64,000 nt of DNA from Chlamydiales bacterium. Lineage in GTDB: Bacteria > Chlamydiota > Chlamydiia > Chlamydiales > JARBTQ01. Positions within the stretch are counted from its first letter, which is position 1. Each line of letters begins with the position of its first letter. The position numbers and the translations under genes were made by a program. The DNA lies in NCBI GenBank assembly GCA_029240075.1, contig JARBTQ010000008.1:2284-66283 (forward strand), read 5' to 3'. Of the stretch, positions 3,170-47,935 are shown one piece after another. The notes beneath the pieces are model-generated. The model ran no database searches. It was given only the letters and a program-made list of their open reading frames with translations, and was not told the origin of the DNA.

Positions 3170-5684
3170 CAGGTTGTTCCATCTCCACAGCCTCTATGGT
3201 TGCAATCTCTTCATCTGCATCTCCAGCGGCATCTGCAACTTGTCCATCTATTTTCTGAATCGCGACAATCATATCTGGATCCTTGAGATTAGCTAGTTTG
3301 ACCCCTTGAGTATTACGTCCTAATACACGTAAACTGCTCATATTGAATCTAATAGTTTGACCAGATGAAGAAACCAAGAGAGCACTATCATTAGCAGCCA
3401 TACTCAATGCACCAACCACATCTCCATTTCGTTCACTTGTTACGATCGATTTAACACCACCTGTGCCACGATTAGTAATACGAAAATCGACAACAGAGGA
3501 GCGTTTACCAAAGCCTTTGCTACATACAACTAAAATAGTCTCCTCTTCCAAGCCATGGACTACCTCGCAGCTTACAACGTAATCTTCCTCTTTCAGATTG
3601 ACTCCTTTAACACCGCGCGCTGTGCGACCTAAAGAGCGTAATGCCGACTCATCAAAACGAACTGCCATCCCTTTTTTGGTAAATAACATAATCTGCTGTG
3701 TAGGCTTCACAAGTCTAGCAGCAACTACTTCATCCCCCTCATCAGGATTAATTGCATAAACTCCTTTACGGCGTGGATTACTGTAAGATTCTAGATCTGT
3801 CTTTTTAACTACTCCATATTTAGTCACTAGTAACATGGATGTTTCGATTTCTTTAAAATCTTTTACTGGTAAGGCTGTTGCAATTTTCTCATCGGGCTGA
3901 AGATCTTCAAGAAGCTGAACTAATGGTTTCCCTTTAGAACGGCGCCCTGTATCAGGAATCTGCCATACTTTTAGCCAGTAACAACGGCCGAAATTAGTAA
4001 TCAACAAGAGAGTTTCATGTGTTGAAGCAACGTATAAAGCCTTTAATACATCGTCTTCCCGCTTCATCTGGAAACCTGCTACCCCACTACCACCTCTTCG
4101 TTGTTCACGGAAAGTATCTAAAGGCATTCGCTTGATATAGTCATCGCCTGATAAGGTAATGACCACTGTTTCTTTAGGAATTAAATCCTCTAAATCCATT
4201 TCACCATCAGCTGGGATAATTTGAGAAAGGCGGGGTGAGGTATGAACTTTAGCTATTTCAGTGAGCTCATCCCTGATCACTCCGCGGATCAGAAGTTCAT
4301 CAGCTAAAAGTGAGCGATAGTAAGCAATTTTACGTTGTAACTCTTCATGTTCTTGTGTAATTTTTTCGCGTTCAAGTCCTGTTAACTGGTAAAGACGTAG
4401 CTCGAGGATGGCTATAGCTTGTCTATCACTAAAATCCATTTCAAGCATTAATTCTTGCTTAGCGGCTTCTTTGCTATCACTTGAGCGAATTAATTGTACT
4501 ACGCGATCTAGAACATCGATTGCACGCAAAAATCCTTCCAGGATATGAGCTCGAATTTCAGCCTTATTAAGTTCGAATAGAGTTCGTCTACGAATTACTT
4601 CAATACGGTGCTCAATCCATGCTAAAATAAGCTGTTTGACATTCATTGTACGTGGCAACCCTTTATCAAGGGCTAATATATTGCACCCAAAACTTGACTG
4701 GAGATCTGTAAACTTATAAAGCTGGTTAAGTGTAAAGTCGGGAATCTCCCCTTTTTTCAGTTCTATCACAATACGTAAGCCATTACGATCTGATTCATCG
4801 CGCAGGTCTGATATAGTAGAGATCTCTTTGTCGTTAATTAAGTCGGCAATATGTTCGATCAAGCGAGATTTATTAACATTATAAGGCAATTCTGTAACCA
4901 CAAGGCGATGACGGAGTCCATCTTGCATCTCCTCTATAGCAACAACTGCTCTCAATACAATCTTGCCCCTTCCTGTATGAAAAGCATCCCTAATTCCTTT
5001 ATACCCACAAATTATTCCCCCCGTAGGGAAGTCAGGCCCAGGCATAACGGTCAATATCTCGTCAATTGTGGTCATTGGATTTTCTAAAACAAGCAGAGTT
5101 GCTTGGATTAACTCTTTTAAATTATGGGGGGGAATATTTGTTGCCATACCCACGGCAATTCCTGAACAACCATTGCAAAGTAGATTTGGAAATTTAGCGG
5201 GAAATACTGTTGGTTCATCTTTTGTCTCATCATAGTTAGAAACAAATTCAACTGTATCTTTGTCCAAATCTTCCATAAGTTGTGTTGCAGAATGAGTTAG
5301 GCGAGCTTCTGTATAACGCATTGCCGCTGCATCATCACCGTCCACCGATCCAAAGTTTCCTTGCCCATCAATTAAGCGATAACGCATTACCCATTCTTGT
5401 GCTAGACGCACTAATGTAGGATAGATTACACTTTCACCGTGAGGATGGTAATCCCCTGAAGTGTCTCCACATATTTTAGCGCATTTTCTGTGTTTTGCAT
5501 TGGGCGTCAAGTTTAACTGCCGCATAGCGTAGAGAATTCTTCGTTGTGAAGGCTTTAAACCATCACGTGCGTCGGGTAGTGCTCTGGAGATAATCACAGA
5601 TAGTGAATAGCGCAGGTAACTTTCTCTTACTTCCTCTTCTACGTTACGAGGAAGAACAAGACCTATAGGATTTTCTGTAGTCAT
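3159..5684 (-). CDS. gyrA: DNA gyrase subunit A
   Basis: 841 aa. Catalytic-Tyr region AAAMRYTEARL, and GyrA-box QRRGGSG in the C-terminal domain, which argues for gyrase rather than topo IV. Confidence 0.97.
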   Translation of the reverse strand: MTTENPIGLVLPRNVEEEVRESYLRYSLSVIISRALPDARDGLKPSQRRILYAMRQLNLTPNAKHRKCAKICGDTSGDYHPHGESVIYPTLVRLAQEWVMRYRLIDGQGNFGSVDGDDAAAMRYTEARLTHSATQLMEDLDKDTVEFVSNYDETKDEPTVFPAKFPNLLCNGCSGIAVGMATNIPPHNLKELIQATLLVLENPMTTIDEILTVMPGPDFPTGGIICGYKGIRDAFHTGRGKIVLRAVVAIEEMQDGLRHRLVVTELPYNVNKSRLIEHIADLINDKEISTISDLRDESDRNGLRIVIELKKGEIPDFTLNQLYKFTDLQSSFGCNILALDKGLPRTMNVKQLILAWIEHRIEVIRRRTLFELNKAEIRAHILEGFLRAIDVLDRVVQLIRSSDSKEAAKQELMLEMDFSDRQAIAILELRLYQLTGLEREKITQEHEELQRKIAYYRSLLADELLIRGVIRDELTEIAKVHTSPRLSQIIPADGEMDLEDLIPKETVVITLSGDDYIKRMPLDTFREQRRGGSGVAGFQMKREDDVLKALYVASTHETLLLITNFGRCYWLKVWQIPDTGRRSKGKPLVQLLEDLQPDEKIATALPVKDFKEIETSMLLVTKYGVVKKTDLESYSNPRRKGVYAINPDEGDEVVAARLVKPTQQIMLFTKKGMAVRFDESALRSLGRTARGVKGVNLKEEDYVVSCEVVHGLEEETILVVCSKGFGKRSSVVDFRITNRGTGGVKSIVTSERNGDVVGALSMAANDSALLVSSSGQTIRFNMSSLRVLGRNTQGVKLANLKDPDMIVAIQKIDGQVADAAGDADEEIATIEAVEMEQPDES

Positions 5685-5702
5685 TATTAGTGCTCCTGCC
5701 CT

Positions 5703-8189
<2,487 letters not shown>

Positions 8190-8231
8190 TTATTGAATCC
8201 TACACCTTTTTTTACTAAAAACGGGAATGTA

Positions 8232-8558
8232 TTAACCCATACGAAAGACAATTGTCTTAATCATTGTATTGGGGAATTTTTCACGTAAACTTTTGATTAA
8301 TTTAGGCTTATCATATTGGTTTAATAAGCTATATAGAGTGGAATCCTTAACTTTTACAGTTAAAATACCAGCTTGAAAAGAGATGGGTTGAGTAAGCGGG
8401 GCCAATTTAGGACCTATAATCTCTGGCCAAGTTGCCAAAATAATATCACCACGATCTTTGTATGAGCGACTGATATTGCCTAGCACTTCAGGTAAGAGAT
8501 CGGAAAGCTTATGCCCAGTAACAGCAGTTCCCTGAAATTCTTTGGGATTTTTACGCAA
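8232..8558 (-). CDS. DUF721 / DciA-like small protein
   Basis: 108 aa, directly upstream of and co-oriented with gyrB. The pattern LATWPEIIGPKLAPLTQPISFQAGILTVKVKDSTL matches the DUF721 signature (W..ivG..la..t.p..l..g.L.v.v.s) as recalled. No HMM was run. Confidence 0.6.
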   Translation of the reverse strand: MRKNPKEFQGTAVTGHKLSDLLPEVLGNISRSYKDRGDIILATWPEIIGPKLAPLTQPISFQAGILTVKVKDSTLYSLLNQYDKPKLIKSLREKFPNTMIKTIVFRMG

Positions 8559-8702
8559 GTGAAAATCCTATTTTAATACATTAACGATTATCTTTATATA
8601 GAGTCATTATACACATTTTGCAGAGAAAAAGCAAGAGGTGGAAAGAGTTAAAATTCAACTCTTAAACTCTTTTAAATTGTAGGCTTAATGAAGAAAAAAG
8701 AA

Positions 8703-8775
8703 TAGCGGGGGAAGGATTCGAACCTCCGACCTTTGGGTTATGAGCCCAACGAGCTAGCCTCTGCTCCACCCCGCG
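8703..8775 (-). tRNA. tRNA-fMet (initiator, anticodon CAT), copy 1
   Basis: The reverse complement folds as a cloverleaf: CGCGGGG acceptor with a C1xU72 mismatch, anticodon arm TTGGG-CTCATAA-CCCAA with three consecutive G:C pairs (initiator hallmarks), and T-loop TTCGAAT. No encoded CCA. Confidence 0.85.
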
Positions 8776-8821
8776 TTATAAATGACAAATTGAACTGAAA
8801 ATATAAAGAATAAAGAGAAAA

Positions 8822-8895
8822 TAGCGGCAGTCGGACTTGAACCAACGACCCTCGGATTATGATTCCGATGCTCTAACCAACTGAGCTATACCGCC
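8822..8895 (-). tRNA. tRNA with CAT anticodon (elongator Met or lysidine-modified Ile2)
   Basis: Reverse complement GGCGGTA-TA-GCTCAGTTGGTTAGAGC-A-TCGGA-ATCATAA-TCCGA-GGGTC-GTTGG-TTCAAGT-CCGAC-TGCCGCT-A, with a regular 7-bp acceptor. Met versus Ile2 identity cannot be decided by eye. Confidence 0.8.
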
Positions 8896-8904
8896 ATCTG
8901 CAAT

Positions 8905-8977
8905 TAGCGGGGGAAGGACTCGAACCTCCGACCTTTGGGTTATGAGCCCAACGAGCTAGCCTCTGCTCCACCCCGCG
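8905..8977 (-). tRNA. tRNA-fMet (initiator, anticodon CAT), copy 2
   Basis: Identical to copy 1 except for one T-loop base (TTCGAGT versus TTCGAAT). It lies 9 nt upstream, in transcript sense, of the middle CAT tRNA. Confidence 0.85.
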
Positions 8978-9072
8978 TTATTAAAATCTGGCATAAGGTT
9001 AACAAAAGCTGCATTTTTGAGCAAAAAAAATATTAAGTGAATATTAACTACTATTTGTCAGCGACTTATAGT

Positions 9073-10914
9073 TCAAATCAATATTTTTTCCATTTCTTTA
9101 ACGAGATCATTAAATTTATTTATAACATTTTCAACAGGATGAGGGGATATAAGGTCTGCTCCTGCAATCTGCAATTGCTCCAAAGGATAAAGACTTCCAC
9201 CGCTCTTGAGAAAATTTAAATAAAGTTGACGCTCTTTTTCGCCACCTTGAAGCACTTTATCCGCTAAAGTCAAGGCTGCACTAACCCCTGTTGCGTATTG
9301 ATATACGTAGAAAGGTGAATAGAAATGAGGTATACGAGCCCATTCTATAGAGATCTCTTCATCTACCACCACACTATCTCCAAAATAGTCACGGTTCAAC
9401 TGAATGTATATATCTTTCACTTTTTGTGGTGTTAAAGGTTCTCTTTGCTCAATTAAGGTATGCATTTTCAATTCAAACTCAGCAAACATTGTCTGCCGGA
9501 AAAGCGTTCCTCTAATTTCTTCAAGTTTGTGGTTGATCAGGTAAGCTTTTTTTAGAGGATCATGGGATTGCTTTAGTAAATGCTGCAGCAATAACTCTTC
9601 ATTGAAAGTAGAGGCGACTTCAGCAACAAAAATAGTATATTCAGAATACTGATAAGGCTGATTTTGCCAACTTAAAGCACTGTGCATACTATGTCCAGCC
9701 TCATGTGCTAGAGTAAAAGCATCGTTAAGCTCCCCTGTAAAGTTCATTAAAATATAGGGGTAACTGTCGTAGCAACCGCTTGAATACGCTCCTGTTCGCT
9801 TAAACTTATTTTCATAACGATCAACCCATCCCTCTTGCATAAGGCCTTTTTCAAGACGGCTTTGATATTCGTTACCTAAAGGTGCAACAGACTCAATGAT
9901 CCACTGAACTGCTTTATCATAATCAACTTTAACATCTAATTCAGGTAATAAAGCTACGTACATATCGTAAAGATGCAATTCTGGTAAATTAAGGATCTTT
10001 TTCCTGAGATTATAATAGCTATGTAAAGCACTTAATCCCTTTCTAACAGTAGCTATTAGATTAGTATAAACTTTTGTATCAATATTTTTAGGAAATAACG
10101 CTGATTCTAAGTTAGACTTATAATGATGAGATTTTGCGTAAAAATTGTATGCTTGTAACTGTCCCTGGAATAATTCACAAAATGTATTTTCCTTTTCCAG
10201 ATATTTAGCATGTAGAGTTTGAAAACTATTTTTTCTTAAGGTGCGATCTTGGCTACGGATATACCCTTGGTAGGCAGCATGAGTTAACGGTAATTCTTGG
10301 TTTTGTGCGTCGGTCACTGTACCTAGATTTAGATCTGCATTATTAAGAGCAGAAAAACTTTTTCTAATCGCATCTAATGGTTGAGCTGCTAATGCAACTA
10401 GCTCTTCTTTTTCGGCGGATAAGGAGTGTTCTTTTAAATGACAAACTTTTTCTAGGTAAAATTTATATTCTTTTAATAGAGGATCCTTAATGTAATCTTC
10501 TAGAGTTTGTTTTGATAGAGTCAATAATTCAGGTTGTATCCAAGAACTTTCTTGCGCAAAGAGATGGTAAAGAGATGATATCTTTTGAAATTTTTGTTTA
10601 TGTAAATCGTGTGTAATATCCTCATCATGACGTAAGTGTGCATATGTATACAACTTACTGATTATCCTATCTAACGAAAAGTAAAGGTCTAAAGCTAGCT
10701 TTACATTTTCCCCTTTCTTTGCAAATGTGTGACGTAAAGCTTCTAACTGTGGCCAGACTTTTTGACCTGACTGAGATTGACATAATTCGGCATACTCCTT
10801 GTCCCATACGTCCCAATTTCCATATAAAGCATTTACATTCCAGGTATTGTTTGGTAGTACATCTGTGCGTAATTGACTCATATCCCGTATCTCCCCATTG
10901 TCGCCACTCTTCAT
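9073..10914 (-). CDS. pepF: oligoendopeptidase F (M3B family)
   Basis: 613 aa. Zinc motif HEAGHSMH followed by FVAEVASTFNE, with length and layout typical of PepF. An alternative start at Met12 (10881) is possible. Confidence 0.9.
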   Translation of the reverse strand: MKSGDNGEIRDMSQLRTDVLPNNTWNVNALYGNWDVWDKEYAELCQSQSGQKVWPQLEALRHTFAKKGENVKLALDLYFSLDRIISKLYTYAHLRHDEDITHDLHKQKFQKISSLYHLFAQESSWIQPELLTLSKQTLEDYIKDPLLKEYKFYLEKVCHLKEHSLSAEKEELVALAAQPLDAIRKSFSALNNADLNLGTVTDAQNQELPLTHAAYQGYIRSQDRTLRKNSFQTLHAKYLEKENTFCELFQGQLQAYNFYAKSHHYKSNLESALFPKNIDTKVYTNLIATVRKGLSALHSYYNLRKKILNLPELHLYDMYVALLPELDVKVDYDKAVQWIIESVAPLGNEYQSRLEKGLMQEGWVDRYENKFKRTGAYSSGCYDSYPYILMNFTGELNDAFTLAHEAGHSMHSALSWQNQPYQYSEYTIFVAEVASTFNEELLLQHLLKQSHDPLKKAYLINHKLEEIRGTLFRQTMFAEFELKMHTLIEQREPLTPQKVKDIYIQLNRDYFGDSVVVDEEISIEWARIPHFYSPFYVYQYATGVSAALTLADKVLQGGEKERQLYLNFLKSGGSLYPLEQLQIAGADLISPHPVENVINKFNDLVKEMEKILI

Positions 10915-11196
10915 TCAATAAAGTACATTAAACTTATTCATAGCTAAATTTAGTATAGCTTCTACGGCTCGCTCTGCATCCTCACCTTCAGCCTCTACTT
11001 GTATCTTTGCTCCCCAATTTGCTGACAAAGTTAAGATATCAAGAATCGACTTTGCATCAATGCACTGCTGATTATAAATCAGCCAAATATTAGATTTAAA
11101 AGTATGAGCACATCTAACCAGCTCAGTAGAAGGGCGCGTGTGTAACCCTTTTTTGTTAGAAACTACAAATGCGGATTTGGATTTAGTAGCAACCAT
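10915..11196 (-). CDS. ptsH: phosphocarrier protein HPr
   Basis: 93 aa. Active-site GLHTRPS (His15 equivalent) and regulatory Ser motif DAKSILDIL. The stop codon abuts the pepF start. Confidence 0.85.
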   Translation of the reverse strand: MVATKSKSAFVVSNKKGLHTRPSTELVRCAHTFKSNIWLIYNQQCIDAKSILDILTLSANWGAKIQVEAEGEDAERAVEAILNLAMNKFNVLY

Positions 11197-11294
11197 AAAC
11201 CACTTCCTAAATTTTGTTCTTTTGTTATTATAACGCGTCTCATATTTTCTGTAATTGTTTTAGCTAAGCCCTAAGTCAGTTTAGTTTTCGCAAT

Positions 11295-11345
11295 AAAAAC
11301 AAAAAACGATCCTATCCATTTACTTTTAATCGTAAATGGTAGGAT
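11295..11345 (-). terminator. Rho-independent terminator-like hairpin with no ORF upstream of it
   Basis: Minus strand reads ATCCTACCATTTAC-GATTAAAA-GTAAATGGATAGGAT (about 13 bp stem with one bulge) followed by CGTTTTTTGTTTTT. It sits about 100 nt upstream of the ptsH start, in the same orientation. Confidence 0.45.
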
Positions 11346-11761
11346 GCACCAAAAACCAGAGTGATACTAAAAACTGTACTTATCCCGCTTAGAGAGCCTT
11401 GAACGGCAATCCCGCGCTAATTCAATAATGTAACGGACAATGAACGAAACTAGAATAATGTTCAATAAAAAAGCCTAAGATAACCTCAATTATTTGAAGA
11501 TTAGAAGAGTACAACGCGATCAGTATTTTTCTTCACCCTACCTAGGTATTATTGCCATCCATTAAATCTTGGCATGCTATTTGCTAAATTCACATCTCCT
11601 AGGATTAAAGCAAATAGATGAGATCTCTTGAACATCCTCCTACCGACTGCCTTAGTAAACTCTTATAGAAAATTTTAGAAGAGACCTATTGGCTAAACAA
11701 GTTCAAGGAATTATTAAAAGTACCTAAATAAGTTTAAAATTCTATAGAGTGTGCTCAACAT

Positions 11762-13294
11762 ATGAATAAGCTGCCCTTGTGGCTCTATTTTCTCATTGCT
11801 ACTGTGTCTCTAGCTAGCTGCGCTCCCCAGCCTAAAAATATCATGTTATTAGGACTGGATAGAAAGCTTACTCATACAGAAAAATTAGCCTTAGAAATAA
11901 GAAAAATTCCTTGTCAGGATAGCGAGTTCGTAACCCTTGCTCAAGCTATCTCCCTGGCTTTTAAGCAAAATTTAGAAGCTTCCGTTTATGAACAACAATG
12001 TGCTATACAGCGAGAGGCCTCTACAGGTAAAAGATTAGCCCAATTACCTTTTTTTGCTTTAAGTAATGGGGATAGTAGTCAGCCTAATTTATTTAATACC
12101 CAAAATACCCTTGAAAGATGCTCTTTGTATGAGATTGAAGAAATTTTAGACTTTAGTATTACTTATTTTCAAGCTCGTCAAATTACAGACCGGACACCTG
12201 CAGTTATACAACAATTCCTTAGAGCTAAGCAAAATCTTATATTTGAAACCTTTTCAAAATATTCGAAAGCTGCTCTGTATAAGCAAGTCTTAAATAAGTC
12301 TAAGCTCCTCTATGATAAAGCTGTCGATTTGCAGCAACAGGCTTCTGCGGATAAAACTTTTGATACGGAGCAACCCCTATTAAAAGAACGTCTACATCAA
12401 ATTAATTCATTAGTACAGAACTACCAAGCAAAATACGAAAAGGCCCTAAATAATTTAAAAGGGGTTTTAAATTGGGATGCTAAAGCTAATTTGGATATTG
12501 ATGAACAGATTATTTCACTAAAAAATCCCCTTTTATTGAATAGCGATATTGAACAACTAGAAGAGCTAGCTCTGCTCAATCAAGAGGAAGTGTATCCAGA
12601 CAATTCTAACTCAAAAACTAATCTCGCAGAAGTAAAACAATTATTCTCGAAAATACTCCCTCAATACGATCTCTTTAAAGATGAGCAAAAAGAAAATAAT
12701 CAAGTTAATCTCTATCAAAATTGGGTTTCTGCTGGAGCCCAAATAGCCGCAAACTTACTAGCCTTTCCTGACTTATCCCCTATCCATACGATTAATAGAC
12801 AAGATATAACACAACAGAGAACTAGACAAAAGATTTTGTCATTGGGCATCTTGACTCAGATCCACCTAAATCATTTCGAATATCTATGTAAACAGGCCAA
12901 ATTTCAGCACGATTATGAAATCTTAAGTATTAGACAAGAACTTGCTGATCGATTAGAGCAAAACAATCAAATAAAAAAAGGCGCTATAGCTGGTAAACTT
13001 GATGCCGCAATAGCACATTTATTAACTGAGTTAAAAACTTTGAAACAGTATATACAGCTACAACTCAGCTTACAAAAGATTTCCAATATTGTTGGACTTC
13101 CTATAGTAGCATTTACCACTGCAAAGCCTCAACCTTATCAGGAAGTATTAAGTTCTATTAAAGTTTTTCCATCATTGAATGAAAAATATTTCATAGGTAC
13201 TAAAAATTCTAACCAAAAGATGCTTGGTCAAAATTTTTCTGACAATTTTATAGCTCTTTTGAGTATAGAAGAAAATTTAAAGGGCTTTCCTTAA
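11762..13294 (+). CDS. TolC-like outer membrane factor lipoprotein
   Basis: 510 aa. Signal peptide with lipobox LASC (Cys20). Two OEP-like repeats beginning VTLAQAISLAFKQNLE and IEQLEELALLNQEEV. Long heptad-rich helices typical of outer membrane efflux proteins. Confidence 0.6.
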   Translation: MNKLPLWLYFLIATVSLASCAPQPKNIMLLGLDRKLTHTEKLALEIRKIPCQDSEFVTLAQAISLAFKQNLEASVYEQQCAIQREASTGKRLAQLPFFALSNGDSSQPNLFNTQNTLERCSLYEIEEILDFSITYFQARQITDRTPAVIQQFLRAKQNLIFETFSKYSKAALYKQVLNKSKLLYDKAVDLQQQASADKTFDTEQPLLKERLHQINSLVQNYQAKYEKALNNLKGVLNWDAKANLDIDEQIISLKNPLLLNSDIEQLEELALLNQEEVYPDNSNSKTNLAEVKQLFSKILPQYDLFKDEQKENNQVNLYQNWVSAGAQIAANLLAFPDLSPIHTINRQDITQQRTRQKILSLGILTQIHLNHFEYLCKQAKFQHDYEILSIRQELADRLEQNNQIKKGAIAGKLDAAIAHLLTELKTLKQYIQLQLSLQKISNIVGLPIVAFTTAKPQPYQEVLSSIKVFPSLNEKYFIGTKNSNQKMLGQNFSDNFIALLSIEENLKGFP

Positions 13295-13461
13295 AAGAAG
13301 TCCATTTTGAGCGTCAGATTTGTATAGAATAAATCGGCTCAGCGATAGGGAAAATAGATGTTAGGATGTAAAATTTTCTAGTCGTCAGATGCAAATTGCC
13401 GCTAGAACATGAAGACCAAATATTTTTTAATGTTATATAGCAAAACAGGGACATAGCTAAG

Positions 13462-16400
13462 ATGCAATACTCTTCACCCACTTGGATCCGATTCATACTT
13501 TCACTAGGCTTATTTACTAGCTGTACCTCCAAAGCTTTGGACGTAAGGAAAAATCGGATTGAAAACCTTCAAAAAGATTTGAACGAATTACATAAAAGAG
13601 ATACCGCTATAGCTCCCGAATATACGTTAGATCAATTGGTTGCTTTAGCCCTAAGTAGAAGTATTGATATTCTTTACCATGAGCAAGAGTACGAGATCCA
13701 AAAAGAGATCGCAACTAAAGCAAAATTAACACAACTGCCCTCCTTGACAGCCAGTTTTGATAGTAGTATGAGATCTCCCCCTATGCGCAGTACGGCAAGT
13801 TCTTTTGCTGCGGACGGAAAGACCCCTATCGAAAAGACAAGCGTTGAATATTCCCAGAGCACCCCAAAAGAAAATCAACAATTTTCCCTAGGTGCAGCTT
13901 GGAATGTGTTAGATTTTGGCTTAACTTATCTTAGAACTAGGCAGGAGCAAAACCAACTTCTAATCTTGCGGCAAAGACAATTAAGGTTAAGACAAAACCT
14001 AATATTAAATGTTACAGAATATTATTGGAAAGCCTCCGTATTCAAATACGCTCTACAAAAATCTACAGAGACTTTAGCTAAGACTAAAGAACTACAAAAA
14101 GCTATTAACAAACAAATACAAGCTAAAACTATTTCTGAAGTGGTGGGATTGCAAATTGAAGATCAAATTCTACAGATGCAAGCTCATGCACACCATTTTA
14201 AAGTCGAATATGAAAAAAACTTAACTGTCCTCATCTCCCACTTACAACTTCCGCCTGGCACAGACCTCAACATTAAAGGATTTGATAAGTTTCCTGAGCT
14301 AAAAGGGAGACTTGATATTGATGTAGCTAATTTAGAAGAGCAGGCTTTACTTAATAGACCTGAGTTATTTGAACAAGATATCAAGCAAGTGATCGATATT
14401 GATGAGACTAAACAATCTCTTTTAAGAATGTTTCCCAATGTCAGCTTATTTGCAGATCTTAATTATAGCAAAAATAAATATCTGCTTCATCATGCTTGGT
14501 TGGATCTAGGCGCGAAAACAGCTTGGAATCTCTTATCCCTTCCTCAACAGCTTCATAATTTCCGTTCCAATAAATTGGGAGAAGACTTAACTAAACAAGC
14601 ACGCCTCTCGCTGTCCATGGGGGTTTTGTCACAATTGCGTTTAGCCTACCTCCTCTATGATGAAGCGATCTCCACATTTGAAATCACACAGCGTTTATTC
14701 CAAGTTAAGCAAAGAAGATTAGCTGCGGCACAGAAGAGCTTTGCTGAAGGGCAAACCTACGAAATGGAAATTATTGAATTACAGGCGGAAACTCTCTTTG
14801 CCGAAATCAATAGCCTTAATAATTTTGCTGAAGCACAAATTGGGTTAGAGAAAATAGCCAATACAGTTGGTATTCCCATGCTCTTTAGTGATATCAATGT
14901 GAGCAAAATTGCTGAACGCTTGAGTTACGGTAAGCCTACTCCAGTTCTGCTTACTAATACTTGGTTGCAATGGGAAAATCCTAAACAAAACTTTAAAAAA
15001 TACCCTAAAAATAAAATATTTTCACGCCAAAGAAATGCGCTTAATTACGAAAATCATATGCGTGGAGTTGTAAGTCAAGAGATTCAGGAGCACTCTAAAA
15101 TCACCCCATTTAATCAACAATTTGACTCTAAAGAGATCTCTTTTTTCCAAGCAAAACCTGCTGATGGCAACGTTATAGATAAAGAGGATGAACAAACGCC
15201 CCCTAATGAAACTCAGAACCAAATTGACTCTAATATCGATTGTAATACTGGAGCAGAAACTTCATGTGAAAATACTGCAATAGCTAAGGCTGAGCCTCAA
15301 ATTACTGGTAATGTTATTGGAGCTATTTTTGCAGAAAACTCACCCACGACAGAACTCAATTTACAAATTCCTCTCTCTGAAGCAATAAATCAGGAGCAAA
15401 ATGATCTCATTGAAAATGAAAAAGAAATCACTAATTCTGTTTTATACGAACATCTAGTAATTATTGAACCACAGGAAGAGTCAAACCAACTTATAGATAT
15501 AGTTGAGGCAAAGGATTGCTGCGAAGATGAAAAACAAGTACCTAGTAAGAAGCCCGAGGGAAGTGGTCAACCAACAGCAATTGAAGCTAGTGTCAATGAG
15601 ACCATGATAGTAGAAGTTGCATTAGTAGATGTAATTAGTCCTATGAACGACAACGTCACTGATTTAACAGACCTATTAACGCAAGCTGTAGAAGAAGAAA
15701 AACAAGAAGATCTACCCATTCAGACTTCTGTAGAGAACGCAACTCTTTTTATAGAGGCAGAACCTATTGCCTATACTCCGGTTGACAACTCTTTACCTAG
15801 CTTAAATCAATCAACTACCATTCATAATAATGAATCTTCAACATCTCAAAGTCATTTTTCTCCTACAGAATCTTTAAAAGAGGTTGAACAAACTGTTGAA
15901 ATTGATGTTAAAAAGAAAAGTGTTGAAGATCTTCCTTATGATGTAAAAGAACACACACTAGAAGGATTAGATCAATCCACCTCCACTCATTATCCTCTTA
16001 AAATAGATGGATCAGAAACAGATTGGAATGCGGATACCCCTTTTGAGGAAGATTATAAAGAAGATGAAGAATTTAGCTCTTCCAAAGAAACTTCAGCTAT
16101 AGAGTCTGGGGAGGAAACTCAAAGTAAGTCCTATCAATCAGAAGATCAACAGGAAAGTGCACTTTTAGACTTACCAGAATCGATCAAACAAGTTCCTGTC
16201 GAACCACAATTAGTAGAGCAGGAACTTCGTCCGTATATTTTCAATATAGCGGAGCAACCTAATACTAGTAATGAAAACGAAAAAATTGAACAAACCAGAG
16301 AAGACAAAGATCCTCAACTCTCTTATGAATTAGTAGGTGAGGCAACTACTGATACTATAGCTTCTACGGAGGTTGATCTTAAGGAAAGCTATAGAGAAAA

Positions 16401-16623
16401 AGACAGTCCCTGTTTGACTCCCCAAATGGCAGCCACTGTCGAAGAAAAACAAGAACCCTCAGCTCTTAAAACAATCGAACTTGGGGCTAATACTGAAGAC
16501 AGCGTTGAACTACCAGAAGAACACCAAATTGAAATTGAAGTGCTGGAAGATCAAGCTAGTGAAAATGCTACAGAAAGTCAAAAAGATTATAATTCTAAGG
16601 CTATCCATGAAACAAATGCATAA
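13462..16623 (+). CDS. TolC-like outer membrane factor lipoprotein fused to a ~570-aa acidic low-complexity C-terminal extension
   Basis: 1053 aa. Lipobox LFTSC (Cys21). The OEP-like halves begin YTLDQLVALALSRSIDIL and ANLEEQALLNRPELF and end near ...EKIANTVGIPMLF (about nt 14890). The remainder is E/Q/T/S/D/N-rich and non-repetitive. Confidence 0.6.
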   Translation: MQYSSPTWIRFILSLGLFTSCTSKALDVRKNRIENLQKDLNELHKRDTAIAPEYTLDQLVALALSRSIDILYHEQEYEIQKEIATKAKLTQLPSLTASFDSSMRSPPMRSTASSFAADGKTPIEKTSVEYSQSTPKENQQFSLGAAWNVLDFGLTYLRTRQEQNQLLILRQRQLRLRQNLILNVTEYYWKASVFKYALQKSTETLAKTKELQKAINKQIQAKTISEVVGLQIEDQILQMQAHAHHFKVEYEKNLTVLISHLQLPPGTDLNIKGFDKFPELKGRLDIDVANLEEQALLNRPELFEQDIKQVIDIDETKQSLLRMFPNVSLFADLNYSKNKYLLHHAWLDLGAKTAWNLLSLPQQLHNFRSNKLGEDLTKQARLSLSMGVLSQLRLAYLLYDEAISTFEITQRLFQVKQRRLAAAQKSFAEGQTYEMEIIELQAETLFAEINSLNNFAEAQIGLEKIANTVGIPMLFSDINVSKIAERLSYGKPTPVLLTNTWLQWENPKQNFKKYPKNKIFSRQRNALNYENHMRGVVSQEIQEHSKITPFNQQFDSKEISFFQAKPADGNVIDKEDEQTPPNETQNQIDSNIDCNTGAETSCENTAIAKAEPQITGNVIGAIFAENSPTTELNLQIPLSEAINQEQNDLIENEKEITNSVLYEHLVIIEPQEESNQLIDIVEAKDCCEDEKQVPSKKPEGSGQPTAIEASVNETMIVEVALVDVISPMNDNVTDLTDLLTQAVEEEKQEDLPIQTSVENATLFIEAEPIAYTPVDNSLPSLNQSTTIHNNESSTSQSHFSPTESLKEVEQTVEIDVKKKSVEDLPYDVKEHTLEGLDQSTSTHYPLKIDGSETDWNADTPFEEDYKEDEEFSSSKETSAIESGEETQSKSYQSEDQQESALLDLPESIKQVPVEPQLVEQELRPYIFNIAEQPNTSNENEKIEQTREDKDPQLSYELVGEATTDTIASTEVDLKESYREKDSPCLTPQMAATVEEKQEPSALKTIELGANTEDSVELPEEHQIEIEVLEDQASENATESQKDYNSKAIHETNA

Positions 16624-16657
16624 AGATCAGCTTTACAAATTTTCAGGTGATGAAAGG

Positions 16658-17566
16658 ATGCAAATGGAGTATTTTCATCCTTTTCACCGGGCAGGATTTT
16701 TACAAATCTCATTTTGGCAAGATTTATTAAATTTCAAATTGTCAAAAGTTTATAGATTTTTACTCAACATAGGACTACCCGTTGTACCTTTAGCCCTCTT
16801 GTGCTACATGACCCCTTGCATTGCCCTAGAAAATACTATACCTTCTAGTCCTGTTGCATCGTTGATTGAAAAACCCGCTAAAGAACACTCTTTTCGAGTG
16901 GTCTTAACACCACTGCATACAACAACAGTTCGTACAAAAGTACCTTCTAAAGTAGTTTATATTCATAAACAGATGGGAGAAAGCTTTGAAAAAGATGAGG
17001 TACTTGTTCAACTGGAAGACACTTTGTTTATTGCAGAAAAGAATAGAGCTCAAGCCATATTTGAAAAATTTAAATCAGTTTTAAATGCAAAACAAGAGCT
17101 TTACCGCTCTAGTATTGCGTCTCTTTCTGACCTGAAAGAAGCTGAAGCTTCTCTAGTCTCCTCTGAAAGAGATCTTATAGCTGCTATGGATGCCCTAGAT
17201 AGCTGCAAATTTAAAGCTCCTTATATAGGTTCTATATCTGCAGTCCATATTAAAGAATTTGAATTAGTACAACCAGGCGACCCAATTGTCGAATTAGTGG
17301 ATGATCATATTCTCTTAGCTAAATTTCTTCTTCCTTCTCACTATTTCAATCAGGTCAAGAAAGGGCAAAAGATCGAAATTAGTGTACAAGAAACTTTTAC
17401 TAAAGAGATTGGTACAGTGACTCAAATAGATGCTGTTATTGATCCTGCTAGCTCTGTCTTTAGAGTGTATGCCGAAATTGATAATTCTGATAAGCATCTC
17501 ATGTCTGGCATGAGAGCAGATATTATACTTAAGCCAGCCCCTTCTAACCTAGCGTCATCGCGTTAA
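16658..17566 (+). CDS. HlyD-family periplasmic adaptor (membrane fusion protein), short form
   Basis: One N-terminal TM (FLLNIGLPVVPLALLCYMTPCIAL). Lipoyl-like hairpin halves VRTKVPSKVVYIHKQMGESFEKDEVLVQLED and FKAPYIGSISAVHIKEFELVQPGDPIVELVDD, followed by a beta-barrel segment. The track ORF start at 16481 overlaps the upstream gene. The ATG at 16658/16664 (AGGA upstream) is more plausible. Confidence 0.6.
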   Translation: MQMEYFHPFHRAGFLQISFWQDLLNFKLSKVYRFLLNIGLPVVPLALLCYMTPCIALENTIPSSPVASLIEKPAKEHSFRVVLTPLHTTTVRTKVPSKVVYIHKQMGESFEKDEVLVQLEDTLFIAEKNRAQAIFEKFKSVLNAKQELYRSSIASLSDLKEAEASLVSSERDLIAAMDALDSCKFKAPYIGSISAVHIKEFELVQPGDPIVELVDDHILLAKFLLPSHYFNQVKKGQKIEISVQETFTKEIGTVTQIDAVIDPASSVFRVYAEIDNSDKHLMSGMRADIILKPAPSNLASSR

Positions 17567-17581
17567 ATTTATGAGAGCTTT

Positions 17582-18928
17582 ATGATTACGGCAAATTCAG
17601 ATAAGGTCTCTGCAGTTCAACTATTAGCAATTATCAATCAACTCAGTTTGCAAGCATACCGTTCGCAATCTCTAGAAGCGTTAATATTTCAAATTGTTAA
17701 TGATACATACCATGCGATTAGTTATAACCGCGCTATGCTTTGGAAATATGAGGATAAGCAATTCGTTCTTTTAGGAATTTCTGGCCAAACACAAATTAGT
17801 AAAAAAAGCCCTTTAATTGATCAAACTCAGCTTTTAATGAGTCATCTTAAAGAGTTAGAAAAACCACAAATTTTGTCTAAGGACTCTTTTAAAGAACAGG
17901 TGCATACTATATGGCATAAGCTTTCAGCAGATTCCCTACAACCAGAGATTTGTTGGTTTCCCATTATTCAAGACAAGCAGCTTATAGGAGGCCTCTGGCT
18001 AGAACGGTGGCATAAAGAAGAGTGGTTGAACTACGAATTAGAAATGCTAGGCTTTATTACTGCAGCCTATGCAGCTGCTTGGGATAAGTACAGAAATAAA
18101 TTTAACTGGAAGAAAGTCTTTCGTTTCTGGGGTTTCTATTTAGGCATAATGTTACTCGGATCTTTTATAATTCATGTCCCTTTGCGCATAGTAGCTCCAT
18201 GCGAGGTAGTTTCCAAAGACCCAGTTGCAATTAGCGCGACTTTGGATGGAACTATTGCTCAACTTGAAGTGAAGCCAGGACAATTGGTTAAAAAAGGTGA
18301 CCTACTTTATAGCTACAATCCAGAAATTCCTCTTCAAAATTTAAAATCCTTTCGCAAACAGGTAGAGGTTAGCCAAGCAGAGCTTGATCGTGCAGTCTCT
18401 TTAGCTTTTACTCACAATCGAGGTCTAGCTGAAATCGAAGAACTTTCACTACGCTTGAGAAAAGAAAAGATCGCTTTAGAAACTGCTGAATATCAAGCTA
18501 AGCATTTGCAAGGATTTGCCCCTAAAGATGGTATTGTTATGTTGGATGACCCTGAAAAATGGCGCGGTAGTCCTGTGACTATTGGGGAAAAGATTCTTCA
18601 AATTGCAGACCCATCTGAGACTAAAGTACGTATGTGGATACCTGAGAGCGATAATATCGTACTTAACCAAAATAAGCCTATCAAAGTTTTTTTAAATGTA
18701 AGCCCTAATCGTAGCTTTACAGCTCAATTAAAATACATTGCCAGCTATACCCATGTAAATGATAAGGGAATGCCTTGCTTTACCTCCGAAGCAAATTGGA
18801 TCGAAGAAGAGGAAAATTTAAAATTAGGACTTAAAGGAAGCGCTATCCTATATGGGGAAGATGTCTCCCTTTTTTACTGGCTTGTACGCCGCCCTTGGAC
18901 AGCACTGCGCAACTTCATAGGATTTTAA
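17582..18928 (+). CDS. HlyD-family adaptor with an N-terminal cytoplasmic GAF-like domain
   Basis: 448 aa. Residues 1-175 are soluble and GAF-like (NRAMLWKYEDKQFVLLGISG ... KQLIGGLWLERW). TM segment VFRFWGFYLGIMLLGSFIIHVPL. The HlyD signature follows: ISATLDGTIAQLEVKPGQLVKKGDLLYSY, a coiled coil, then FAPKDGIVML. Confidence 0.6.
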   Translation: MITANSDKVSAVQLLAIINQLSLQAYRSQSLEALIFQIVNDTYHAISYNRAMLWKYEDKQFVLLGISGQTQISKKSPLIDQTQLLMSHLKELEKPQILSKDSFKEQVHTIWHKLSADSLQPEICWFPIIQDKQLIGGLWLERWHKEEWLNYELEMLGFITAAYAAAWDKYRNKFNWKKVFRFWGFYLGIMLLGSFIIHVPLRIVAPCEVVSKDPVAISATLDGTIAQLEVKPGQLVKKGDLLYSYNPEIPLQNLKSFRKQVEVSQAELDRAVSLAFTHNRGLAEIEELSLRLRKEKIALETAEYQAKHLQGFAPKDGIVMLDDPEKWRGSPVTIGEKILQIADPSETKVRMWIPESDNIVLNQNKPIKVFLNVSPNRSFTAQLKYIASYTHVNDKGMPCFTSEANWIEEEENLKLGLKGSAILYGEDVSLFYWLVRRPWTALRNFIGF

Positions 18929-18938
18929 TCAATTCATG

Positions 18939-18977
18939 ATAAGCCTATTTTTTAGTCTATAGATAGGCTTATTTTTC
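18939..18977 (+). terminator. Rho-independent terminator closing the OMF/MFP operon
   Basis: ATAAGCCTAT - 14 nt loop - ATAGGCTTAT followed by TTTTT, 11 nt after the stop of the 17582-18928 gene. Confidence 0.55.
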
Positions 18978-19232
18978 TGCGATAAAGTATACATTTTCGC
19001 TTGCATCTATTTCCCCAGATTTTTCAGATGGAAAATATCCCCCCTCAATCTTTTCAAATTTTGCCAGCTTGAGTGCATTGCCTAAAATCTTGTAATCGAG
19101 TAGATGCACGGAGTTAGGGAAATGTTCGCGCATACTTGGAATATAGTCCCATACGTTATTTATATAACCTGCCCAGTCGCTTCCAGCTCTCTTTTGCTCC
19201 TCTATTCTATTTAATTTAAGGTTGGGACCTTC
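18969..19232 (-). pseudogene. possible C-terminal gene remnant (methyltransferase-like tail)
   Basis: Hand translation of the minus strand gives an 87-codon open frame with no upstream start: ...EEQKRAGSDWAGYINNVWDYIPSMREHFPNSVHLLDYKILGNALKLAKFEKIEGGYFPSEKSGEIDASENVYFIAEK*. The only Met leaves 54 aa. The ending resembles C-termini of class I methyltransferases. Confidence 0.3.
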
Positions 19233-31139: not shown

Positions 31140-32777
31140 CTATTTAGAACGTAATGATAAAGTTTTTTTAAGGATCAAATTGCTTATCTCATAACTTGCT
31201 GTTTCTAAAATTTCATATAAAGAACAAAATCCTTTTTTCTTATAATCGAGACATTCAAACAAGCAGCTCTGAATATAGGTTTGATCTAACAGCACTTTTA
31301 GGACTTCCTTGTGCCCTAATTGGGCAGCTTCCACAAGCAATCTATTTTTATTCTGGAAAAAAAGATCTGTTGTTGGCGGACTATAACTTAAAATATAGTC
31401 TCCCTGTGCAACCTCTAAAATTTTCTTTAGTATTTTAGGTTGGTTATTTGTACAGGCTAGATAGGCTAGAGAACGCATGATTTCAAATTTTGAACTTGAA
31501 TCATATTTTGCTGCTAATAGTGTAACTTCTAGTAAAGAAATTAATTCTTCAAATTTTTCAATATCCCCTTTTATAACTAAACTATTAAATCTAGCTTCTA
31601 GCATCTTGTATAAATTTATTCTATCTCTATTATAGTTTTGAGGTATGGATTTTAGAGTTGCTTTGATTGCAGGGTCATCCAATAGATCCTTTATACGTTT
31701 TGAATCACCCGAATGAAAAGCTAGAGTTAAAGGATAGTACGGAACAACCCTAGTAGAATTATTGCTCCATTGAAATCCAGTAGTTGTATCAAATTTTAGC
31801 TTGTTAAGTAATTCTATATTTTCTAAATCCTGTGCAGAAGGTACTGTCTTTAATTTTTTAAGGATTAAATCGCTTATCTCATAACTTGCTGTGTCTAAAA
31901 CTTCATGTAAAGAATCAAACATTTTCTTCTTAGGGTCTAGGCATTGCAATAGACAATTTTGGATATAAGTTTGATCTAATAGTAATTCTATAATTTCCTT
32001 ATGCCCTAGTTGAGCAGCTTCCACAAATAACCTAATATGACTAGGAGGGCACAATTCCACAGAATCGTGGTTCGTTGGAGGAGTGTAAGTTAAAACATAT
32101 TCCCCGCTTGCAACTTTTAAAATTTCTTGCAACATTTCAGGCTGATTATTTCTACAGGCTAGATGAGTCAACGACTTCATGATTTTATAATAGGCTGCAT
32201 GGTTGTGCTCATTCGCTGCTGTTAGCGTAGGTTTTAGTAAAGGAATTAAATTTTTAAATGTTTCAATATCCTCTTCTATAACTAAACTATTAAATCTAGC
32301 TTCTAGCATATTACATAAGTTTTTCCTTCTGTCATTGGAGCCAAGGGGCAAAGAATCAAGAGCCTCCTTGATCTCAGGCTTATCCAAGACAGTTTTTATA
32401 AGCTTTGAGTTTTTTGAATGAAAGGCTTGGATTAAAAGATAGTAGGGAGGCATCTTATAATTAACATTTTGAATCCATTCAAATGTCGTTGTTGCACTAA
32501 AACCTTTTACACTCAGTAGTAAATCTACATTTCTTAAATTTCCTTGTGATGCATATTTAGCTAAGTCTAAAGCAGCTTGCTCCCCCTTGCTTGCTTTAAC
32601 AATATTACCTATTGCAAGTTGTGCTATTCTATTAAATAACTTGTTTACTTGTGCGTGCAAAGCTAAATCTCCAAGCTTCATTAAACTCATTATTTTTACT
32701 TGTATATCTTGTGGTAACTTTTCAAATTTAAAATATTCTGGAGCAAAGCTTTCAATTTTACTATTATTCACGTTCAT
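31140..32777 (-). CDS. F-box-like protein built from two ~230-aa tandem repeats
   Basis: 545 aa. N-terminal EKLPQDIQVKIMSLMKLGDLALHAQVNKLFNRIAQ fits the F-box consensus, including the LP start. Residues ~85-310 and ~321-540 are collinear paralogous halves. Confidence 0.7.
   Translation of the reverse strand: MNVNNSKIESFAPEYFKFEKLPQDIQVKIMSLMKLGDLALHAQVNKLFNRIAQLAIGNIVKASKGEQAALDLAKYASQGNLRNVDLLLSVKGFSATTTFEWIQNVNYKMPPYYLLIQAFHSKNSKLIKTVLDKPEIKEALDSLPLGSNDRRKNLCNMLEARFNSLVIEEDIETFKNLIPLLKPTLTAANEHNHAAYYKIMKSLTHLACRNNQPEMLQEILKVASGEYVLTYTPPTNHDSVELCPPSHIRLFVEAAQLGHKEIIELLLDQTYIQNCLLQCLDPKKKMFDSLHEVLDTASYEISDLILKKLKTVPSAQDLENIELLNKLKFDTTTGFQWSNNSTRVVPYYPLTLAFHSGDSKRIKDLLDDPAIKATLKSIPQNYNRDRINLYKMLEARFNSLVIKGDIEKFEELISLLEVTLLAAKYDSSSKFEIMRSLAYLACTNNQPKILKKILEVAQGDYILSYSPPTTDLFFQNKNRLLVEAAQLGHKEVLKVLLDQTYIQSCLFECLDYKKKGFCSLYEILETASYEISNLILKKTLSLRSK
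31158..32525 (-). repeat. intragenic tandem duplication, period about 690-705 bp
   Basis: It is visible at DNA level: TTTTTAAGGATCAAATTGCTTATCTCATAACTTGCTGTTTCTAAAATTTCAT near 31165 versus TTTTTAAGGATTAAATCGCTTATCTCATAACTTGCTGTGTCTAAAACTTCAT near 31855. At protein level: EARFNSLVI, VEAAQLGHKE, LLDQTYIQ.CL and TASYEIS.LILKK occur in both halves. Confidence 0.85.
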
Positions 32778-36674: not shown

Positions 36675-36757
36675 TAGAACTTTTAGATAACTCCTTATTA
36701 ATTACTTTAAAACCGCCCCTACAAAAAGGTTTATACGGTAAGTTTATTACTAAAATT

Positions 36758-38635: not shown

Positions 38636-39008
38636 AGCTACCTACTCTATCTATCCAATGGGCAATCGTAGTTCTAAATGATTTAAAATCAATGATTGGC
38701 TTAGCTATATAATCATCGAACCCCTGCTGAAGATAGTAATCCCTATGTTCTTTCATAGCATGAGCTGTAGAGGCTATAATAGGCATAGTATAATTTGGAT
38801 TTTCTTTAATTCTACGTAAGATCTCAATCCCATCCAGTAAAGGTAGAGAAATATCCAACAAAATAAGGTCGGGGAGGTTGACTCCTATCCCTTGTAAACC
38901 ATCAATTCCATTGACATATTCATGGACTTCATACATGGGAGATAAAATAGCTGTTAACAAAAGTCGGTTGTCTCGATTATCCTCTATAATTGCAATTTTC
39001 TTTTTCAT
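38628..39008 (-). CDS. single-domain response regulator (CheY-like receiver)
   Basis: 126 aa. Acidic pair IIEDN, phospho-acceptor LILLDISLP, T in IASTAH, K in YIAKP. No output domain. It overlaps the start of the downstream kinase by 8 nt. Confidence 0.9.
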   Translation of the reverse strand: MKKKIAIIEDNRDNRLLLTAILSPMYEVHEYVNGIDGLQGIGVNLPDLILLDISLPLLDGIEILRRIKENPNYTMPIIASTAHAMKEHRDYYLQQGFDDYIAKPIIDFKSFRTTIAHWIDRVGSCA

Positions 39009-39020
39009 AAATATAAAGCT

Positions 39021-47853: not shown

Positions 47854-47935
47854 TGCCCAGGATAGGGTTCGAACCTACACACCTTGCGGCACTAGATCCT
47901 AAGTCTAGCGTGTCTGCCAATTCCACCACCTGGGC
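47854..47935 (-). tRNA. tRNA-Leu (anticodon TAG)
   Basis: Reverse complement GCCCAGG-TG-GTGGAATTGGCAGACACG-CTAGA-CTTAGGA-TCTAG, a long variable arm TGCCGCAAGGTGTG, then TAGGTTCGAACCCTA-TCCTGGGC-A. Class II tRNA, 82 nt. Confidence 0.9.

Follow-up and report, generated by a model that had tools for sequence, protein, structure and literature searches.

Tripartite envelope machines are thought to require a motor of the ATP-binding cassette (ABC), resistance-nodulation-division (RND) or major facilitator superfamily (MFS) type. Here, a locus without such a motor is described from a Chlamydiales bacterium (GenBank assembly GCA_029240075.1), in which two TolC-like outer-membrane factors (OMF1 and OMF2) and two HlyD-type periplasmic adaptors (membrane fusion proteins MFP1 and MFP2) are encoded one after the other. 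The locus lies in a stretch of 64,000 nucleotides, referred to as the window, which is part of a 99.7-kb contig of the Joint Genome Institute (JGI 3300042923 Ga0456365_0000417) and begins at position 13973 of that record. Two described systems are of special interest for comparison. Type I secretion (HlyB-HlyD-TolC, including the C39-ABC exporters) also combines an OMF channel with an inner-membrane-anchored HlyD-type adaptor. In addition, a module related to type I secretion systems has been described bioinformatically by Kamneva, Poudel and Ward (PLoS One 2015, PMC4452313), consisting of GAF-HlyD, Peptidase_M50-HlyD, HlyD/biotin-lipoyl and secondary SecA_DEAD proteins, sometimes together with an OEP protein. 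No other literature on M50/HlyD/TolC/GAF clusters or on chlamydial TolC/HlyD clusters was found. The lit cluster of Legionella was considered and set aside, since it is of the MacB type (PMC11559062).

The locus shares several components with the module of Kamneva and colleagues (PMC4452313): it has a protein with a GAF-like domain, a transmembrane helix and a HlyD part (MFP2), a short HlyD/biotin-lipoyl protein (MFP1) and an OEP protein, and it has no ABC transporter. It differs from that module in lacking Peptidase_M50-HlyD and SecA_DEAD, in having a second, divergent OMF, and in the acidic tail of 573 amino acids (aa) carried by one of its OMFs. Chlamydiae are not among the phyla named in the title of that paper. 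The four genes probably represent the chlamydial form of a conserved, pump-less trans-envelope module, of which they would supply the part in the outer membrane and periplasm. The initial annotation of the window, made from the letters alone, had regarded a doubled set of OMFs and adaptors without an energising component as an architecture that was not described. This does not hold, since a module of OMF, short MFP, GAF-MFP and M50-HlyD is present in the earlier work (PMC4452313). The family as a whole is without a pump, and this is not new. The initial interpretation is therefore supported in part, and the locus is a split and embellished variant of an already described module. Special to it are the detachment of M50-HlyD, the extra divergent OMF and the long acidic tail of OMF2.

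The partner conserved at related loci

Related loci and homologous or representative proteins were fetched and are given here with L-numbers and P-numbers, respectively. In four chlamydial genomes (L002, L004, L006 and L008), an orthologous OMF-MFP1-MFP2 cluster is adjoined on the opposite strand by a gene for a protein of about 707 aa, here called M50-HlyD. This protein is a polytopic Peptidase_M50 protein of the site-2-protease type that is fused at its C-terminus to a third HlyD-type adaptor domain. A census of 185,579 species genomes, anchored on MFP2, returned 69 loci, of which 68 were scored, and M50-HlyD lies alongside in 58 of these. Both genes are also found together in 71 of 79 metagenome loci that were anchored on M50-HlyD. 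The module occurs across Chlamydiota, Planctomycetota and Desulfobacterota. In the latter two phyla, the order OMF, MFP1, MFP2 and M50-HlyD on one strand is observed (21 loci), while in chlamydial contigs M50-HlyD is placed on the opposite strand (33 loci). The motifs HExxH and NxxPxxxxDG are intact in all of the best 120 of 1341 M50-HlyD homologues, which are chlamydial wherever their source is named. The family has been conserved over a long evolutionary time in at least three phyla, with an adaptor-fused intramembrane protease in the place of the motor.

No ABC, RND or MFS pump is conserved at the related loci. The initial annotation had proposed a neighbourhood comparison for a conserved fifth partner, and had named an adjacent ABC or RND pump in relatives as the finding that would speak against its interpretation. 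Relatives do have an adjacent partner, in the numbers given above, and it is a site-2-protease-HlyD fusion rather than a pump; in substance, this finding counts against the initial interpretation. The earlier suggestion that the locus may borrow a component encoded elsewhere fits the data, except that the conserved partner of the family is M50-HlyD and not a pump.

Complete and co-oriented OMF-MFP1-MFP2-M50-HlyD modules were also observed on many human-gut metagenome contigs (L123-L155), with an M50 identity of about 38%. The carriers in the gut may be Desulfovibrionaceae.

The outer-membrane factors and the adaptors

The four open reading frames (ORFs) share one orientation, on the plus strand, and follow each other at positions 11762-13294 (OMF1, 510 aa), 13462-16623 (OMF2, 1053 aa), 16481/16607-17566 (MFP1, 361/319 aa depending on the start) and 17582-18928 (MFP2, 448 aa). 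OMF1 and OMF2 are separated by 167 bp and MFP1 and MFP2 by 15 bp, while OMF2 and MFP1 either overlap or are at most 34 bp apart, depending on the start of MFP1. The gene content and the family assignments of the initial annotation were right for all four co-oriented genes, as is evident from matches to OEP, to RND_mfp and to HlyD_3, HlyD_D23 and Biotin_lipoyl_2, and from the fold of OMF1.

The channel domain of OMF2 (aa 1-480, positions 13462-14901) matches Pfam OEP (PF02321) with an E-value of 1.9e-20 and 73.9 bits against a cut-off of 22. OMF1, which is a divergent TolC-like OMF lipoprotein, has no Pfam or NCBIfam match itself. Its assignment follows from its paralogy to OMF2 (26% identity over about 480 aa, E 6e-30 in BLASTP), from its 40 nearest homologues, all of which match OEP, and from its predicted structure. 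The AlphaFold (AF2) model of OMF1 has a mean predicted local distance difference test score (pLDDT) of 75 and contains helices that are 75 and 68 residues long. Its best 44 fold matches in the PDB are all TolC, OprM or CusC-type channels with a probability of 1.00; this fold comparison was used after a sequence search of OMF1 against the PDB gave no match. Confidence is low for the beta-hairpin regions of the model (pLDDT about 40), the first of these predicted regions being shorter in OMF1 than in OMF2.

Both OMFs have a signal peptide and a lipobox cysteine, LASC (C20) in OMF1 and FTSC (C21) in OMF2, which agrees with the initial description of two paralogous TolC-like lipoproteins. The lipobox cysteine is at least 90% conserved among the homologues of OMF1. 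Public gene calls begin too far downstream to include the signal peptide and lipobox of either protein (positions 11762-11842 and 13462-13536): the NCBI entry P0241 begins at Met28 of OMF1, and the JGI call of OMF2 begins 25 codons into the gene. As a result of these truncated starts, the annotated OMF1 and OMF2 would not look like lipoproteins.

Compared with the OMFs of related loci, OMF2 shows 32-39% identity and OMF1 22-27%. Judged by these values, OMF2 and the conserved OMF of the module are orthologues. Orthologous loci contain a single OMF, with the exception of L073, where an independent duplication is found. The copy of OMF1 in a second assembly of the same organism (P0241) is its sole close relative, the next best matches of an exhaustive HMMER search being at 27-28% identity. 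OMF1 thus appears, from sequence comparison, as a lineage-specific, fast-evolving extra paralogue. The possibility that OMF1 serves as the channel of another pump was also considered and rejected: a word-indexed search gave only the copy of the same organism, and HMMER nothing above 27-28% identity. The HMMER matches include long-tailed OMFs that by their length are apparently OMF2 (1028 aa) and the OMF of L007 (1386 aa). Since these are long-tailed OMFs of the module type and no close homologue exists, OMF1 is treated as a divergent duplicate from within the family and not as a borrowed OMF.

The C-terminal tail of OMF2 (aa 481-1053, positions 14902-16623) shares its ORF with the channel domain and brings the protein to about twice the length of a plain OMF. 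The tail comprises 573 aa, is of low complexity and rich in Glu, Ser, Thr and Gln, with 14.8% Glu and a net charge of -77, and contains no repeats and no transmembrane segment. An open frame of 573 codons in DNA of 36% GC would arise by chance with a probability of about e^-41 (our own estimate, made without a dedicated tool). Tails of at least 100 aa are present in 51 of 149 representatives of the OMF family; these range from 100 to more than 2300 aa and are mostly acidic and Glu-rich (P0244-P0387, L007 and L038). Also, the OMFs of L002, L004, L006 and L008, where M50-HlyD is kept, are longer than a plain OMF, at 554-649 aa. Because the M50-HlyD gene is located between OMF and MFP1 in L002 and L006, the DNA of the OMF2 tail was searched for a remnant of this gene. 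This candidate was rejected, as tblastn on both strands with E-values up to 50 found nothing, apart from weak matches to the HlyD part of MFP2.

MFP1 is a short periplasmic adaptor of 319 aa according to the JGI call (positions 16607-17566). An alternative start codon is the ATG at 16658, and the longest ORF, from 16481, has 361 aa with an N-terminal hydrophobic segment at about aa 90-115. It matches TIGR01730 (RND_mfp) with 108.3 bits against a cut-off of 94.9 and HlyD_3 with an E-value of 2.9e-15, and is 34-45% identical to the MFP1 proteins of related loci.

MFP2 (positions 17582-18928; MDF2577172.1, locus tag K0S74_656) is an inner-membrane-anchored adaptor that matches HlyD_3 (E 6.9e-13, 49.7 bits against a cut-off of 22.2), HlyD_D23 (E 4.9e-11) and Biotin_lipoyl_2. 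Its predicted layout consists of a cytoplasmic alpha/beta, GAF-like domain at aa 31-166, a transmembrane helix at about 183-205 and a periplasmic adaptor at 206-448, the last with lipoyl, short alpha-hairpin and beta-barrel domains. This cytoplasmic domain and membrane anchor, as well as the acidic tail of OMF2, were missing from the initial annotation. The predicted alpha/beta fold of the N-terminus (aa 31-170) would be compatible with GAF. The AF2 model has a pLDDT of 92.7, and its periplasmic part matches the folds of MacA, MexA and AcrA. There are 179 homologues with 38-50% identity, mostly chlamydial among those with a named source. The motifs GLWLERW, PLRIVAPCE and GLKGSAILYG are conserved, and MFP2 retains every invariant column of an alignment of 60 sequences.

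A putative leader-dependent export route

In 25 of the 69 genome loci, from Planctomycetota, Desulfobacterota and Chlamydiota, and also at the locus of P0121, the module is adjoined by genes for giant DUF4347 proteins with a common N-terminal motif, (M)R[FL]xI[IM][PR]LE[ED]RIVLD[AG]A. These include L009, L010, L014-L016, L021, L031, L033-L035, L041, L042, L044, L045, L049, L061, L062 and L068. The giants are from 1000 to more than 3700 aa long, and in each the motif is followed by a low-complexity linker and by Pfam DUF4347, after which come repeats of the Ig, cadherin, VCBS or tandem-95 type. The LEERIVLDAA-type motif is not a Sec signal. For its nine-residue pattern, about 0.01 chance matches are expected in this amount of sequence (our own estimate, assuming uniform residue frequencies).

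The M50 domain of the partner provides a second indication. Its best NCBIfam matches are the daptide protease NF041824 (161 bits) and YydH/LiaK (39 bits), both scores being below the family cut-offs of 300 and 225, respectively. These are intramembrane proteases that remove the leader peptides of peptides that ribosomes synthesize and that are modified post-translationally (RiPPs). The daptide protease is fused to a RiPP recognition element (RRE), and its precursors share an N-terminal ELExMEAP motif, which is similar to the LEERIVLDAA motif in the proteins proposed as cargo. In contrast to the RiPP proteases, the M50 partner is fused to a HlyD adaptor, and its putative substrates are the giants described above rather than short peptides, none of them encoded in the window.

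Leader-dependent export is inferred from these two observations, the neighbouring motif-bearing giants and the likeness of the M50 domain to RiPP leader proteases. In the proposed mechanism, the M50 membrane domain would be the base on which the three adaptor-type proteins form a periplasmic tube, and these adaptors would dock to an OMF trimer. The module would then export proteins that carry the N-terminal leader (M)RFxIxPLEERIVLDAA followed by DUF4347, and the M50 domain would recognize and clip this leader, in the manner of the RRE-fused daptide/epipeptide RiPP proteases or of the C39 peptidase of ABC exporters. By analogy with these proteases, it is a tentative proposal, with a chance slightly below even, that DUF4347 proteins are exported by the module in one leader-dependent step, with M50 clipping the leader. 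Somewhat more speculative is the wider view that the full module may be a distinct, ATPase-less secretion system of Planctomycetes-Verrucomicrobia-Chlamydiae (PVC) bacteria, Desulfobacterota and others for the one-step export of giant, adhesin-like DUF4347 proteins with an M50-clipped leader; the version present here would be split, its channel duplicated and one OMF acidic-tailed.

Such a system would share with type I secretion the giant repeat proteins, which are found as neighbours in relatives, and the proposed coupling of leader cleavage to export. It would differ in having no ABC ATPase and in its putative signal, which is N-terminal and of the LEERIVLDAA type instead of C-terminal and RTX-type. 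Also, the C39 exporters have a cytoplasmic C39 domain on the pump, whereas here an intramembrane M50 metalloprotease is attached to an adaptor.

The link of the wider family to leader-bearing DUF4347 giants is the more interesting lead; nothing on it, or on the function of DUF4347, was found in the searchable literature. If the giants are the cargo, two questions can be put to the test: by which route giant surface proteins that have neither Sec nor RTX signals exit the cells of planctomycetes, Chlamydiae and deltaproteobacteria, and what energizes transport without an ATPase. Chlamydiae rely on secreted and surface proteins towards their hosts, and the module would then be an unrecognized export route. 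In addition, the locus illustrates that the module can split and that its channel can be duplicated and extended by long acidic tails.

The contig also encodes, upstream of the window (record about 4.7-14.5 kb; L157 1-9875), a protein with OTU and filamentous-haemagglutinin (Fil_haemagg_2) domains whose length is at least 3002 aa. It has no LEERIVLD-type motif and is therefore no obvious cargo of the module. An 855-aa RasGEF protein is encoded in the same upstream stretch (L157 1-9875).

The absent partner, competing explanations and genomic surroundings

Several observations weigh against the reading of the locus as half of a split, leader-dependent export module. The M50-HlyD of this organism was found neither in the window nor in the 83 kb of contig, and no K0S74 or MDF257 entry is present among the best 120 of 1341 M50-HlyD homologues. 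The metagenome scan gave no Ga0456365 contig, and the source metagenome-assembled genome (MAG) is outside the genome collection that was scanned. Neither the window nor the visible contig contains a DUF4347 gene or an ORF with the leader motif. The model of cargo and leader cleavage draws on gene neighbourhood and family resemblance. In addition, no energy source was identified for the module. SecA_DEAD, on which the earlier description was anchored (PMC4452313), was seen in 0 of 77 loci by a test for GEGKT and DExD motifs, which is strict and may miss divergent copies. Finally, the GAF match of MFP2 is weak (E 0.01; 16.8 bits, where the cut-off is 22.4), and GAF is matched in only 5 of 60 homologues.

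Regarding the absent partner, Pfam, JGI gene calls and tblastn gave no ABC, RND, MFS, M50 or SecA-like gene, either for the window or for record positions 4668-87359 (83 kb). This agrees with the initial annotation, in which no ABC, RND, MFS or site-2 protease gene had been noted at or near the locus. The M50-HlyD of L004 (GCA_002709385), used as a query, is missing from its own match list, where the top match is 49% identical; absence from the M50-HlyD list is therefore weak evidence of absence. The best M50-HlyD match present only in JGI data, P0121, is from another sample. As the MAG is outside the genome collection and its metagenome did not come up in the metagenome scan, a partner elsewhere is an expectation and not a result.

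Split arrangements have been observed in other Chlamydiae. OMF-MFP1-MFP2 without M50 despite adequate flanks is found at three loci: this one, L007 and L038. The converse, M50-HlyD without MFP2, is found at L081, L113 and the locus of P0121, with about 53% identity to the chlamydial query. As the split is seen from both sides, splitting appears to be recurrent, and on the basis of these comparisons M50-HlyD is likely encoded elsewhere in this genome. The MFP2 proteins of L007 and L038 are 79% identical to each other, and that of this organism is 48-49% identical to either, which is no closer than to L004 or L008. All three M50-less loci have very long OMF tails, of 573 aa here, about 900 in L007 (OMF of 1386 aa, 5040-9200) and about 1500 in L038 (OMF ORF of 1976 aa, 3214-9144). 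In L007, an ORF called at 18,085 aa (L007 1-4804) ends 236 bp upstream of the OMF; the DNA analysed there does not reach its N-terminus.

The best-surviving alternative is that this lineage has lost M50-HlyD and that the four genes are an orphaned remnant, either decaying or reused, for example as an envelope scaffold. The failure to find M50-HlyD in the 83 kb of contig or among the database matches listed would fit such a loss, as would the divergence of OMF1, which is too great for the Pfam OEP model and leaves it without a close homologue, and its shortened first beta-hairpin region. Decay is difficult to reconcile with four intact ORFs, including a frame of 1053 codons in AT-rich DNA, with the tight, operon-like packing of OMF2, MFP1 and MFP2, or with the invariant columns and confident model of MFP2. 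The split modules of other Chlamydiae, seen from both sides, also speak for a detached partner rather than a lost one, and the orphan explanation is considered unlikely.

Less probable again is that the genes belong to an ordinary tripartite efflux pump or type I secretion system whose ABC, RND or MFS transporter is encoded elsewhere, as is the case for TolC in Escherichia coli. JGI labels MFP2 as a 'multidrug resistance efflux pump', MFP1 passes the RND_mfp cut-off, and the lipoyl, alpha-hairpin and beta-barrel layout of the periplasmic part of MFP2, with its closest folds in MacA, MexA and AcrA, is that of the adaptors of MacAB-TolC and RND pumps. However, adaptors are normally co-transcribed with their pump, and the window contains no RND, MFS or ABC gene. 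The inner-membrane protein conserved next to the module across the 77 related loci is M50-HlyD and no transporter; ABC-like ORFs are present in just six of them, at inconsistent distances, orientations and positions. Unlike MacAB-TolC and RND systems, the module has no conserved MacB or RND partner, comprises three different adaptor-type proteins per system and has a cytoplasmic domain on MFP2.

Least probable, by a narrow step, is a self-sufficient conduit, a channel that is passive or gated by the tail and made of the two OMFs and two adaptors alone, with the acidic OMF2 tail replacing the inner-membrane partner in this lineage: the long tails at all three M50-less loci would suit it, but long tails are widespread in the OMF family, OMFs are also lengthened where M50-HlyD is kept, the OMF2 tail has no transmembrane segment, and MFP2 keeps the cytoplasmic domain and membrane-proximal motifs that are expected to contact an inner-membrane partner.

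The borders of the locus can be described as follows. Upstream, a spacer of 565 bp (positions 11197-11761) separates OMF1 from the divergent HPr gene (10915-11196, minus strand), which confirms the long spacer noted earlier; it presumably holds the promoter region. No Rfam family and no leader-motif ORF is present in this spacer. Downstream, a hairpin followed by a T-run (18938-18977, plus strand) begins 10 nt past the stop codon of MFP2. The hairpin itself (18938-18973) has an AU-rich stem of 13 bp and a loop of 10 nt, with -15.2 kcal/mol and a z-score of -2.77, and was not called at 18938-18977 by a consensus terminator scanner. It is plausibly a weak intrinsic terminator, so that the feature noted initially is present without being as clear as was stated. 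The opposite-strand gene remnant that had been reported next to it corresponds to a minus-strand ORF of 54 aa (18969-19133, about 80 codons open) between the hairpin and the next gene; no identity was found for this ORF, which may or may not be a gene remnant.

Chlamydial marker families in the window, namely CT_584-like, UPF0137 and F-box/ankyrin proteins, support the assignment to Chlamydiales. An F-box and ankyrin protein and two more ankyrin-repeat proteins are encoded at 20878-22725, 25954-28158 and 31140-32777, and these proteins may be candidates for eukaryote-like effectors typical of amoeba-associated Chlamydiae. Two tandem, paralogous PAS-PAS histidine kinases (625 aa), one of which has an N-terminal GAF domain, are located on the minus strand at 34797-40619 and are adjoined on the same strand by a response-regulator/Hpt protein of 532 aa. 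Outside the window, the same contig carries two flagellin genes with Flagellin_N and Flagellin_C domains (record about 85.3-87.4 kb; L158 1-2013). To our knowledge, flagellar genes in Chlamydiae are known only from a few environmental lineages. An Rfam scan of the whole window returned tRNAs only, with nothing in the spacer or the operon. These tRNAs comprise a cluster of three between dciA and pepF (8703-8977, minus strand) and further tRNAs at 47854-47935 and 60095-60182.

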